Of a DNA stretch of 31,884 bases, positions 30,824 to 31,884 are shown piece after piece (the stretch's first letter is position 1; every line of letters starts with the position of its first letter). Source of the DNA: a virus (Duplodnaviria > Heunggongvirae > Uroviricota > Caudoviricetes); the IMG/VR virus record IMGVR_UViG_2541047931_000002, positions 1 to 31,884 of that record; one strand, written 5' to 3'. Made by a program: the position numbers and the translations under genes. A model generated the notes under the pieces. It was not told the DNA's origin, searched no databases, and saw only the letters and a program-made list of their open reading frames with translations.

Positions 30824-30880
30824 CCATGTGTAGTCTTTGGTGGCATCAGTTCTACTCCGTGACTGCTCTGCCACCCTTTT
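30824..30880 (+). ncRNA. dicF: DicF-like small RNA (processed from the operon transcript, ends at an intrinsic terminator)
   Basis: ...CTTTGGTGGCATCAGTTCTACTCCGTGACTGCTCTGCCACCCTTTTT resembles the remembered E. coli K-12 DicF (GUUUGGCGGUAUCAGUUUUACUCCGUGACUGCUCUGCCGCCC), with paired changes GGCGG/CCGCC to GGUGG/CCACC; immediately upstream of dicB. Ends approximate. Confidence 0.5.
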
Positions 30881-31050
30881 TAAAGTGAATTTTGTGATGC
30901 AGTGAATGCGGCTAAGCGCACGCGGAACAGTTAAAACCAAAAACAGTGTTATGGGTGGATTCTCTGTATCCGGCGTTAATTGTTAACTGGTTAACGTCAC
31001 CTGGAGGCACCAGGCACCGCATCACAAAACTCATTGTTGAGGGCGCGATA

Positions 31051-31239
31051 ATGAAAACGTTATTACCAAACGTTAATACGTCTGAAGGTTGTTTTGAAAT
31101 TGGTGTCACTATCAGTAATCCTGTATTTACTGAAGATGCCATTAACAAAAGAAAACACGAACGGGAGTTATTAAATAAAGTATGCATTGTTTCAATGCTG
31201 GCCCGTTTACGTTTGATGCCAAAAGGATGTGCACAATGA
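31051..31239 (+). CDS. dicB: Cell-division inhibitor DicB
   Basis: Frame of ORF 30946..31239; start placed at ATG 31051 with GAGGG RBS, giving 62 aa MKTLLPNVNTSEGCFEIGVTISNPVFTEDAINKRKHERELLNKVCIVSMLARLRLMPKGCAQ, recognised as DicB. Confidence 0.65.
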   Translation: MKTLLPNVNTSEGCFEIGVTISNPVFTEDAINKRKHERELLNKVCIVSMLARLRLMPKGCAQ

Positions 31240-31427
31240 ATCCAGTATTTGCACTTATTCTGACAGTTTTTCTTGTTTCCGGAGAGCCAGTTGATATTGC
31301 AGTCAGTGTTCACAGAACAATGCAGGAATGTATGGCAGCAGCAACCGAACAGAAAATTCCAGGCAACTGTTATCCGGTCGATAAAGTTATTCACCAGGAT
31401 AATAACGAAATCCCGGCAGGATTTTAA
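31236..31427 (+). CDS. YdfD-like small protein (63 aa) with hydrophobic N-terminus
   Basis: Frame of ORF 31182..31427; start placed at ATG 31236 (ATGA overlap with the dicB stop; AAGGA RBS): MNPVFALILTVFLVSGEPVDIAVSVHRTMQECMAAATEQKIPGNCYPVDKVIHQDNNEIPAGF. Confidence 0.5.
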   Translation: MNPVFALILTVFLVSGEPVDIAVSVHRTMQECMAAATEQKIPGNCYPVDKVIHQDNNEIPAGF

Positions 31428-31520
31428 AACAGCACCGTAATAAATATCCAGTTTCATTCTTATATGTCAGCAATGGCAGAGATTTGTTCACCCTTAAATC
31501 TGTGATGAGGTTTACCAATA

Positions 31521-31676
31521 ATGAGCACTGATAAAGAAAAATTTGCACTATATTGCGAAGCAAAAAATGACAAAGTAAGAAAACGCCTGGGAATTAAAGG
31601 TGGTTTTTACTGGACTACAGCAAAAAAATTATCTGTTGCAATCTCCCGCTGCATTACCGCAATGGATGACAACGAT
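31521..31676 (+). pseudogene. 5' fragment of a phage gene (ydfE-position) truncated by IS1 insertion
   Basis: The ORF 31521..31757 is chimeric: the first 52 codons (MSTDKEKFALYCEAKNDKVRKRLGIKGGFYWTTAKKLSVAISRCITAMDDND) are phage sequence, then the reading frame enters the IS1 terminal repeat at 31677. Confidence 0.6.
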
Positions 31677-31884
31677 GGTAATGACTCCAACTTATTGATA
31701 GTGTTTTATGTTCAGATAATGCCCGATGACTTTGTCATGCAGCTCCACCGATTTTGAGAACGACAGCGACTTCCGTCCCAGCCGTGCCAGGTGCTGCCTC
31801 AGATTCAGGTTATGCCGCTCAATTCGCTGCGTATATCGCTTGCTGATTACGTGCAGCTTTCCCTTCAGGCGGGATTCATACAGC
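31677..31884 (-). mobile_element. IS1 insertion sequence, partial (continues beyond window end)
   Basis: Begins with the IS1 terminal inverted repeat GGTAATGACTCCAACTTATTGATAGTGTTTTATGTTCAGATAATGCCCGATGACTTTGTCATGCAGCTCCACCGATTTTGAGAACGACAGCGACTTCCG..., the reverse complement of the insB end of IS1 as remembered. Confidence 0.8.
31692..31884 (-). CDS. insB: IS1 transposase InsB, C-terminal part (5' end outside window)
   Basis: Minus-strand translation ends ...[19 protein letters not shown] with stop at 31692-31694. Confidence 0.7.

Follow-up and report, generated by a model that had tools for sequence, protein, structure and literature searches.

A dicBF operon with a minority DicF allele and an IS1 insertion in a lambda-like Escherichia coli prophage

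The window analysed here, a stretch of 31,884 nt from IMG/VR record IMGVR_UViG_2541047931_000002, is a lambda-like E. coli prophage in which the tail gene J is followed by head, lysis, Q, replication and immunity genes and then by a dic operon. GpJ was found at the start of the window, tail, terminase, portal and capsid genes are spread over positions 7000–31676, and gene calls on the source scaffold placed an antiterminator, RusA, hok, YdaT and Cro upstream of the dic operon. On the same scaffold, Xis-like and integrase genes come after the dic operon, with DUF4224 and the integrase downstream of its exonuclease gene. Judged by this gene content, the prophage looks complete from J to int, whereas Qin of E. 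coli K-12 is cryptic.

The DicF sRNA, DicB and YdfD make up a known E. coli prophage cassette that inhibits cell division, and the sequence-only reading had recognised such a module near the right end of the window, with DicB and a YdfD-like gene intact. Both points were upheld by an Rfam match to DicF, by protein identities to K-12 (Table 1), and by Pfam: DicB aligned with PF05358 over profile positions 1–62 of 62 (135.4 bits, E 5e−40) and the YdfD-like protein with DUF1482 (PF07358; 87.9 bits against a cut-off of 25, E 4e−25). The start of the ydfD-like gene overlaps the dicB stop codon (ATGA at 31236–31239). The operon runs in the order ydfC, DicF, dicB, ydfD and exonuclease, and gene order agrees with that of K-12 Qin (ydfC to ydfD) and of E. 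coli M15. As in the Qin dicBF operon (ydfABC-dicF-dicB-ydfD), the ydfC 3' UTR contains DicF, with a hairpin of the same architecture, a U tail and a nearly identical 3' pairing region; the encoded proteins are 89–97% identical, and a repressor gene facing a cro-like gene stands upstream of the module. Unlike Qin, the operon lacks ydfA and ydfB and has in their place a segment with a minus-strand zinc-ribbon gene, and its repressor, at 238 aa, is of the cI type and has an S24 autocleavage domain, where Qin has the short DicA.

Table 1. Features of the dic operon and its control region (positions in the window)
Feature	Position	Strand	Basis
Cro-like repressor gene	28597..28812	-	Pfam P22_Cro on identical scaffold gene; Cro/CI family annotation in M15
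Operator-like palindrome AGGGTAAC-N4-GTTACATA (OR-like)	28839..28858	.	cro/cI intergenic region
cI-like repressor, HTH_3 and Peptidase_S24 (LexA-type autocleavage) domains	28862..29578	+	Pfam
Putative control region (pL-type), dic operon	29642..29669	+	-35-like TTGACT, then perfect palindrome
ydfC homologue	30283..30501	+	70/72 aa identical to K-12 YdfC (97%); DicF arises from the 3' UTR of its mRNA
DicF sRNA, minority 'type II' allele	30824..30876	+	Rfam RF00039, alignments to K-12 Qin, folding
dicB, cell division inhibitor, 62 aa, intact	31051..31239	+	60/62 aa identical to K-12 DicB (97%)
ydfD-like gene, 63 aa, intact	31236..31427	+	56/63 aa identical to K-12 YdfD (89%)
813-aa phage exonuclease gene, first 52 codons	31521..31676	+	ATG 31521; colinear with intact M15 gene
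9-bp IS1 target-site duplication GACAACGAT, left copy	31668..31676	.	
IS1 right end: IRR GGTAATGACTCCAACTTATTGAT and 3' end of insB	31677..31884	-	100% identical over 208 nt to annotated IS1A

Upstream of the module, the Cro-like gene and the cI-like gene diverge in transcription; the start of the latter (ATG 28862) was set from the annotation of M15, where the product is a 238-aa 'LexA family protein'. The perfect palindrome of the putative control region, AAGGTAAC-TCTT-GTTACCTT, lies at 29650–29669. A search for AAGGTAAC-N4-GTTACCTT with up to three mismatches returned only two matches in the window, this one and the palindrome between cro and cI, against 0.03 expected by chance. In addition, the adjoining positions 29682–29840 share 99.4% identity with the DNA immediately 5' of ydfA in phage Tritos and in other dic prophages. 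A consensus scan gave neither a plus-strand sigma-70 promoter nor a consensus -10 for the dic operon, and the promoter is therefore putative, its placement being based on the palindrome and on homology.

With the same operator palindrome at the cro/cI junction and upstream of the operon, control would probably be exerted by the prophage's own cI-like repressor, unlike in Qin; and because this repressor has a LexA-type autocleavage domain, the cassette should fire on SOS induction. In other words, the shared palindromes suggest an SOS-inducible prophage with the dic cassette as its pL-type operon. Judged from the homologous K-12 operon, transcripts ending at the DicF hairpin and trimmed at the 5' end by RNase E would give an Hfq-dependent sRNA of ~53 nt, and read-through transcripts would express the division inhibitor DicB and YdfD. 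In phage lambda, kil blocks host division on induction. The arrangement resembles the lambda pL operon with kil, in that a division inhibitor would occupy the early-left operon between the repressor and the recombination and int genes, under an operator apparently common to the operon and the cro/cI region. It differs in that the effectors are an sRNA and DicB instead of the Kil peptide, and in that its promoter is a predicted one. No N-like antiterminator was identified. The operator evidence suggests that dicBF serves in intact prophages as an SOS-induced early function, in contrast to the silent, DicA-locked operon of K-12, and such a role would help explain why a toxic cassette is kept.

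The exonuclease gene that follows ydfD is interrupted by IS1, as the sequence-only reading had proposed, with the cut after codon 52. Homology to the uninterrupted M15 gene stops at 31676, and the IS1 right inverted repeat, reading GGTAATGACTCC..., begins at 31677. The other end of the element (IRL GGTGATGCTGCCAACTTACTGAT) and the second copy of the 9-bp target-site duplication, both of which had been named as things to look for outside the window, were found in the source scaffold. The right copy of GACAACGAT lies at L005 10871–10879, after the other IS1 end, and the uninterrupted M15 gene holds the sequence once. Both ends are 100% identical to IS1A, and DDE_Tnp_IS1 and Zn_ribbon_InsA genes were called on the minus strand of the scaffold. 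With both inverted repeats, a 9-bp duplication, and insA/insB fragments on one strand, the element is like other simple IS1A insertions and has nothing unusual about it. Past IS1, the remainder of the exonuclease gene has no stop codons, and the reconstructed protein is identical to that of M15 at 803 of 813 positions.

The window stops at 31884 because the assembly has a gap of 380 N within IS1, the interior of the element being unassembled and the two contigs joined across it. This gap, together with an element of 714 bp in the scaffold as against 768 bp, would be in keeping with an assembly or scaffolding artefact in which the contig merely ended in a repeat. We regard this as extremely unlikely: the gap length is an estimate, the contig itself contains the junction at 31676/31677, and at the start of the other contig the opposite IS1 end is followed by the 9-bp duplicate and, in frame, by precisely the rest of the gene.

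Pfam searches with the intact homologue showed that the exonuclease has an Exonuc_VIII region and a C-terminal Rv2179c-like 3'-5' exonuclease domain. It is thus like RecE (exodeoxyribonuclease VIII) of the Rac prophage in its short Exonuc_VIII (PF06630) region and in its syntenic place before xis/int. It differs from Rac RecE in its C-terminal catalytic domain, which is of the Rv2179c-like DEDD type (PF16473, E 8e−68), and DNA similarity to recE was detected over only about 55 nt.

The exonuclease/IS1 junction was absent from 5426 complete E. coli genomes, and an exact junction search of GTDB species-representative genomes returned no match, while the first 400 nt of the exonuclease gene run continuously across the insertion site in at least 1371 of the 5426. 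As the sequence-only reading had stated, K-12 has a different IS in the gene after ydfD: there, IS2E cuts ydfE at codon 255. The further proposal that ydfE is the equivalent of the interrupted gene fails, since the 255 aa of K-12 YdfE before IS2E have no detectable similarity to the 813-aa exonuclease (BLASTP best E 3.1); YdfE also has no Pfam match. With unrelated genes, cut at codon 255 and codon 52, and with so many uninterrupted copies, the comparison supports neither a recurrent insertion target nor selection against the gene.

A related possibility is that the insertion is adaptive, either by removing a harmful exonuclease or by blocking xis/int through polarity and so locking in a useful prophage. 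IS1 insertions are polar, K-12 Qin likewise has an IS after ydfD, and we found IS1 at other sites of dic modules: two genomes have it within dicB, and eight more have it in the stretch from ydfC to dicF. An adaptive role is nonetheless improbable: the K-12 gene is unrelated in sequence, the insertion positions differ, the junction occurs in none of the complete genomes, the source contig is recorded in only 2 samples, and the genes that run uninterrupted across the site are annotated as intact. The remainder of the gene shows no secondary damage, as expected if the insertion is neutral and very recent. We read the IS1 as a simple transposition, recent and specific to this strain, which left a 9-bp duplication and the rest of the exonuclease gene undamaged. 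It inactivates the exonuclease and, IS1 being polar, may also lower read-through into the xis/int genes downstream. The DicF/DicB/YdfD module is a textbook one, the IS1 insertion is routine genome wear, and the wider value of the locus lies in its DicF allele.

This DicF copy, 5' of dicB in the ydfC 3' UTR of a lambdoid prophage, matched the Rfam covariance model RF00039 at 30825–30876 (+) over model positions 1–52 of 52 with 61.1 bits (E 3e−11), as against a gathering score of 48 bits and 76.7 bits for K-12 DicF in the same test. In the alignment with Qin, which had been suggested as a check on the identification, 14 of 53 positions differ from K-12 (1–6, 9–12, 18, 21, 29 and 50). The different 5' end that had been noticed from the sequence is real, the count given for it (11 nt) being slightly off: 10 of the first 12 nt are changed, so that the replaced end spans 30824–30835, and a 14-nt deletion relative to K-12 lies directly upstream. 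The precursor sequence at the K-12 DicF cleavage point also differs in this allele. From position 13 on, 37 of 41 nt are the same as in K-12, and over the rest of the ydfC-dicB spacer, which measures 565 nt, identity to K-12 is 95.6% (94% for the whole spacer). The clustering of 10/12 differences in one spot (binomial P about 2e−12) is therefore not a matter of drift.

The terminator hairpin (7 bp plus 4 bp) forms all of its 11 pairs. Positions 18 and 50 face each other in the stem and form a C-G pair in K-12 but a U-A pair here, which bears out the claim of compensatory stem changes (GGCGG/CCGCC to GGUGG/CCACC). Through the change at position 21 a U-G wobble has become C-G, and at position 29 a loop U has become C. 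Relative to K-12, one pair is thus changed on both sides and one on a single side (98.7% of cells paired), the minimum free energy is about equal in the two alleles (−15.8 and −15.9 kcal/mol), and the U tail is intact, with a T run (TTTTT) at 30877–30881 just after the hairpin. These features bear on whether the copy is a decaying, non-functional relic, its differences being neutral damage in a prophage remnant. The Rfam score 15 bits below that of K-12 DicF, the two altered ftsZ-pairing nucleotides, and an operon already struck by an IS are in keeping with decay, but the stem change is compensated at unchanged hairpin energy, the U tail and most of the sequence from position 13 are preserved, DicB, YdfD and YdfC are all intact, the prophage looks complete, and the same allele is found again in hundreds of genomes. 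We consider a relic very unlikely. Overall, with a probability of roughly 0.8, we read the region as an early-left operon (pL-type) from a lambda-like prophage of E. coli, with a minority DicF allele, here called type II, and a recent IS1 insertion.

Among the 5426 complete E. coli genomes, type II DicF was matched over its full length in 207 (~4%), compared with 3954 for the K-12 type. Its stem was found in 39 IMG/VR contigs, with 5' sub-variants, three of these contigs carrying a U-G intermediate. No match came from a search of GTDB representative genomes with a type II-specific pattern or of the phage collection with a 67-mer of type II, and across these two sets the allele was tied to no species or phage beyond the strain-level data for E. 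coli. Phage vB_EcoS-689R5 has a module 95.6% identical to the present one, yet its DicF is of the K-12 type, and the type II patch is therefore local. On these sequence comparisons, type II is a recurrent minority allele that consists of a ~55-nt patch with 14 differences, in flanks ~96% identical to the K-12 type. Patch recombination from a diverged dic lineage would be its most likely origin, and its hairpin is kept by a compensatory change, the U-G intermediate being seen in other contigs. A search of both strands of the window for a donor of the 20-nt patch returned nothing but the patch itself. The ydfC-dicB spacer has a second divergence hotspot at 30647–30691; precursor pairing of this segment with the DicF 5' patch was rejected, as the alleles at the two places assort independently.

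DicF serves as a model of the way in which sRNAs acquired by horizontal transfer join host networks, and to our knowledge it has been treated in published work as essentially one sequence. No description of the type II 5' end was found in the literature searched, from which the main papers on enterohaemorrhagic E. coli (EHEC) DicF and on dicF-like sequences were absent. The 3' end of DicF pairs with ftsZ and pykA and its 5' end with xylR (PMC5069750), and the 3' end also pairs with manX (PMC5861419); with ftsZ, pykA and manX pairing in the 3' part and xylR at the 5' end, the 5' replacement bears on xylR-type targets. Pairing was computed against K-12 target sequences, the source strain's own not being used, by means of region-restricted duplexes, seed shuffles and dimer partition functions, thermodynamic energies of this kind being weak evidence. 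Full-length duplexfold of DicF with 140-nt targets had produced long, unrealistic duplexes, and this approach was replaced.

For xylR, the region-restricted 5' duplex of K-12 DicF (−20.3, 13 contiguous bp) gives way in type II to a duplex of −13.5, which is shifted along the target and draws on nucleotides of the stem. The 15-nt 5' seed scored −15.8 in K-12 (1.1% of shuffles as good) and −7.1 in type II (83%), and the dimer binding energies were −15.4 and −3.9 kcal/mol, respectively, with shuffles at −5.7 ± 2.5. The expectation that the 5' change could alter target pairing thus holds for xylR, where the 13-bp pairing is gone, but not for ftsZ, which pairs with the 3' part; for the same reason, the suggestion to predict ftsZ pairing with the variant 5' end started from a mistaken premise. 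The region-restricted 3' duplex with K-12 ftsZ went from −27.9 in K-12 to −21.3 kcal/mol in type II, that with pykA from −26.4 to −25.9 and that with manX from −33.9 to −29.9. The ftsZ-pairing core CUCCG:CGGAG and its flanking pairs are kept in type II, and only two 3' changes (U29C and G50A) hit ftsZ-paired nucleotides. The full dimer model for ftsZ, which takes intramolecular structure into account, separated neither allele from shuffles (K-12 −14.1, type II −11.6, shuffles −12.4 ± 3.6). Because this model does not discriminate, the case for retained ftsZ control is built on conservation of the genetically mapped nucleotides, with 29 and 50 changed. With the 3' pairing region nearly unchanged, division inhibition would probably persist, perhaps somewhat weakened; with the xylR-pairing 5' seed gone, control of xylR is predicted to be lost.

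The new 5' end may go further than loss, and type II DicF might be a retargeted sRNA whose seed was selected for other mRNAs, for example manX at its SgrS site, where it would reinforce shut-down of the mannose PTS. DicB also inhibits the mannose PTS, which lambda-type phages use for DNA entry. The replaced block is exactly the single-stranded 5' seed, and the allele, with sub-variants of its own, is kept across 207 complete genomes as well as 39 viral contigs. Nucleotides 1–13 of type II form a predicted duplex of −16.0 kcal/mol with manX +20 to +33 (8 contiguous plus 4 bp), an energy that only 1.1% of shuffles match, and with the terminator intact the minimum-energy type II dimer employs this pairing. 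The site overlaps the footprinted SgrS site C139–G152, that is +24 to +37 (PMC5861419). However, the manX match was post hoc among four targets tested (~4% after correction), and the 5'-upstream/3'-downstream order on manX precludes one continuous helix with the known 3' site. In addition, 16 of 41 type II copies have sub-variant changes (CATGCGTAGTC, CATGTGTAGTA) that would break predicted manX pairs, so that the pairing is not conserved within the type II class. On this evidence retargeting is a speculative reading, and we think it unlikely.

We are similarly doubtful of a more general picture, in which dic modules would carry at least two DicF 'seed types' with a common 3' body and exchangeable 5' seeds, type II having dropped xylR and gained other targets. 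If it were true, it would be a case of natural modular seed swapping in an Hfq-dependent sRNA, spread via patch recombination between prophages, and a type II seed possibly acting at the SgrS site of manX would tie DicF closer to the DicB-mediated mannose PTS block. Were the new seed used, strains would differ in their DicF targets, with xylose control lost and others gained. What the comparison does give is that ~4% of complete E. coli genomes keep the division-control body of DicF and differ in its 5' seed.

In EHEC, DicF is present in four copies, activates pchA and responds to low oxygen. These copies sit in the same dicBF setting, on lambdoid prophages distinct from Qin (PMC5069750, PMC7873438), and the type II copy is likewise found in a dicBF context on a non-Qin lambdoid prophage. 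The alleles differ: the K-12-type query matched O157 and further multi-copy genomes, at up to 7 places per genome, whereas type II DicF occurs at 1–2 places per genome, in genomes other than these multi-copy ones.

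The dicBF-type module at the 3' end of the window and the IS1 insertion that follows it had been read accurately at sequence level and are ordinary in kind; only the DicF allele exceeds the known picture, its targeting 5' end having been exchanged. An Rfam search matched DicF (RF00039) end to end at 30825-30876 on the plus strand (61.1 bits, E = 3e-11, gathering score 48), compared with 76.7 bits for K-12 DicF in the same search. Gene order and spacing were as in the K-12 cryptic prophage Qin and in E. coli M15; the M15 module shares 98.9% identity with the window and lacks IS1. 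The dicB and ydfD-like genes, called intact by the sequence-only reading, proved so on protein identity and Pfam domains. Membership tests, those of interaction aside, place the module in the dicBF family.

Features of the prophage and its dic module (window positions, unless a locus in another E. coli genome is named)
Feature	Position	Strand	Remarks
STnc100 sRNA	21804-21993	-	132 bits
tRNA-Arg(tct)	22692-22766	-	between Q antiterminator and lysis region
tRNA-Met(cat)	22867-22942	-	between Q antiterminator and lysis region
sok antitoxin RNA	25938-26112	-	adjoins hok-family gene
Operator-like palindrome, copy 1	28839-28858		cro/cI intergenic region
cI-like repressor	28862-29578		HTH and S24 autocleavage domains (Pfam)
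Operator-like palindrome, copy 2, perfect	29650-29669		directly after TTGACT, just upstream of dic operon
Zinc-ribbon ORF, 68 aa	29990-30196	-	annotated in M15 as 'ECs_2282 family putative zinc-binding protein'
ydfC homologue	30283-30501		upstream of DicF; 70/72 aa identical to K-12
dicB	31051-31239		downstream of DicF; 60/62 identical to K-12; Pfam DicB full-length
ydfD-like, DUF1482	31236-31427		downstream of DicF; 56/63 identical to K-12
IS1 in another dic module	L003 4592-5359		other E. coli genome
IS1 in another dic module	L004 about 4001-4768		other E. coli genome

Aligned to K-12, the DicF allele of the window (30824-30876, hereafter type II) differs at 14 of 53 positions (1-6, 9-12, 18, 21, 29 and 50) and lies immediately 3' of a 14-nt deletion. 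Positions 18 and 50, partners in the outer stem, went from C-G to U-A, position 21 from a U-G wobble to C-G, and position 29 from a loop U to C; all 11 stem pairs are still formed, and the predicted hairpin energy is the same in both alleles (-15.8 vs -15.9 kcal/mol). Ten changes fall within 12 adjacent positions, against 95.6% identity to K-12 across the 565-nt ydfC-dicB spacer excluding the DicF patch and a hotspot at 30647-30691 (P about 2e-12), which rules out drift and marks the 5' end as a replaced block. The compensatory stem change and the different 5' end had both been described correctly from sequence alone, the former being real and a single evolutionary event. U-G at the covarying pair (GGTGGC/GCCGCC), seen in three type II contigs from IMG/VR (L151, L154 and L166), may plausibly have linked C-G to U-A; a single K-12-type copy (L092) shows an unpaired C-A. 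The hotspot, in the ydfC-DicF spacer, is identical to K-12 in 29 of 48 columns; contigs show two or more allele types there, which assort independently of DicF type. A 49-aa ORF (30619-30768), opened by an ATG that is CTG in K-12, received a gene call in the source assembly and is probably spurious.

Among 5426 complete E. coli genomes, full-length matches to a 67-nt query spanning the type-specific part occurred in 207 (1-2 places per genome) for type II, and in 3954 (up to 7 places per genome) for an equivalent K-12-type query. The type II stem occurred in 39 IMG/VR contigs, with few 5' sub-variants (CCCATGTGTAGTC, ..GTAGTA, CATGCGTAGTC and the window's own TCCATGTGTAGTC); the allele had no match in the GenBank phage collection or among GTDB species representatives. 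According to a 2016 study, the phage genome databases then available contained no matches to DicF or DicB. We found complete ydfC-DicF-dicB-ydfD-exonuclease modules in phages Tritos (OV696610.1) and vB_EcoS-689R5 (ON470583.1), all with K-12-type DicF. Across the module the latter shares 95.6% identity with the window despite its K-12-type DicF, so the DicF patch is a small mosaic unit. No description of the type II 5' end was found in the searchable literature, which covers only part of the relevant papers.

The variant 5' end had been linked to ftsZ pairing. Published genetics, however, place ftsZ and pykA pairing in the 3' part of DicF and xylR pairing at its 5' end (PMC5069750), so the replacement does not concern ftsZ; manX G150-C167 is also paired by the 3' part (PMC5861419). 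Using K-12 target mRNA sequences, the predicted xylR pairing of K-12 DicF is lost in type II in all three tests: the 5' duplex (-20.3 kcal/mol with 13 contiguous bp in K-12; -13.5 in type II, at a shifted site using stem nucleotides), the 15-nt 5' seed (-15.8, with 1.1% of shuffles as good, vs -7.1, with 83%) and dimer binding (-15.4 vs -3.9; shuffles -5.7 +/- 2.5). The 3' duplexes gave -27.9 (K-12) and -21.3 kcal/mol (type II) for ftsZ, -26.4 and -25.9 for pykA, and -33.9 and -29.9 for manX. Core pairing with the ftsZ RBS is kept in type II, with paired nucleotides changed by U29C and G50A. Since dimer binding to ftsZ (-14.1 and -11.6 kcal/mol; shuffles -12.4 +/- 3.6) distinguished neither allele from shuffles, we infer from the conserved mapped nucleotides that ftsZ control would be retained, maybe weakened.

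The new 5' end (30824-30836) is also predicted to pair with the manX coding region at +20 to +33 (8 + 4 bp at -16.0 kcal/mol, matched by only 1.1% of shuffles), overlapping the footprinted SgrS site C139-G152 (PMC5861419), which is +24 to +37 given a 115-nt UTR. This is a lead, not a finding: the match was post hoc, one of four targets tried, and its predicted pairs would be broken by changes in 16 of 41 type II copies and are not conserved across all sub-variants. What is left is a modest testable lead, that of a prophage sRNA with a variable seed.

Next to ydfD comes a gene with its ATG at 31521, and its homology to the intact 813-aa M15 exonuclease (Exonuc_VIII region and C-terminal Rv2179c-like 3'-5' exonuclease domain, Pfam) ends at 31676, after 52 codons, with the IS1 right inverted repeat beginning at 31677, precisely the interruption first proposed. 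The source scaffold (KE702255.1, assembly GCA_000461115.1), located through the 78-aa fusion ORF, has a gap of 380 N inside IS1 where the window ends (10365-10744 of the source locus L005). Beyond the gap we recovered the other IS1 end sought by that proposal, the left one, followed by 9 bp, GACAACGAT, and the gene remainder in frame without stops; the same 9 bp stand at 31668-31676 and are single-copy in M15. The reconstructed exonuclease matches M15 at 803 of 813 residues. Judging from these junctions, the insertion is a simple, recent transposition of the standard IS1A type. A DUF4224 gene and an integrase lie downstream of the exonuclease, and a polar effect of IS1 on transcription from the early-left promoter might reduce their expression.

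A recurrent insertion target, or selection against the gene, had been suggested because K-12 appeared to be cut by a different IS at the equivalent position. IS2E does interrupt the K-12 gene after ydfD, but that gene is unrelated in sequence: YdfE, of which 255 aa precede the IS, belongs to no Pfam family and lacks similarity to the exonuclease (best E 3.1), and the two elements sit at different codons (255 vs 52). Among the complete E. coli genomes searched, none carried IS1 at the codon-52 site, and at least 1371 have the first 400 nt of the exonuclease gene unbroken, with the gene annotated as intact, leaving either suggestion unsupported. IS1 does recur in dic cassettes without one fixed site: strains 23CRST022 and 22F46 carry it within dicB, and eight genomes, strain 99-3165 among them, have it in the ydfC-DicF interval. 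This pattern fits IS1-rich genomes striking non-essential prophage DNA.

The window, one scaffold contig, is a lambda-like prophage: gpJ comes first, followed by tail, head and terminase genes, then by lysis genes, tRNA, Q antiterminator, RusA and hok/sok, and finally by replication genes, YdaT, Cro and the cI-like repressor. Both edges reflect the assembly and not the biology: the 5' edge lies within tail-tip gene J (1-3750), which runs off, and the 3' edge (31884) at the N-gap. The genes ydfA and ydfB, 5' of ydfC in K-12 and many dic prophages, are absent and replaced by segment 29841-30282. The palindrome (A)GGTAAC-N4-GTTAC(CTT) has only two matches in the window (0.03 expected by chance), and the segment after the second shares 99.4% identity with the one that precedes ydfA in phage Tritos as well as in other dic prophages. 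A consensus scan found no plus-strand promoter for the dic operon, so it is from the palindrome pair and shared segment that we infer a pL-type operon of an SOS-inducible prophage, with a putative promoter. This arrangement suggests SOS-inducible control of the cassette by the prophage's own S24-domain cI-like repressor, whereas in Qin the operon is silenced by the short DicA repressor. Past the window, L005 13224-20237 holds the DUF4224 gene, the prophage integrase and a Peptidase_M90 gene, followed by a second (P4-type) integrase and chorismate-binding, MFS and ABC genes, which looks like a second integrated island directly beside the prophage.
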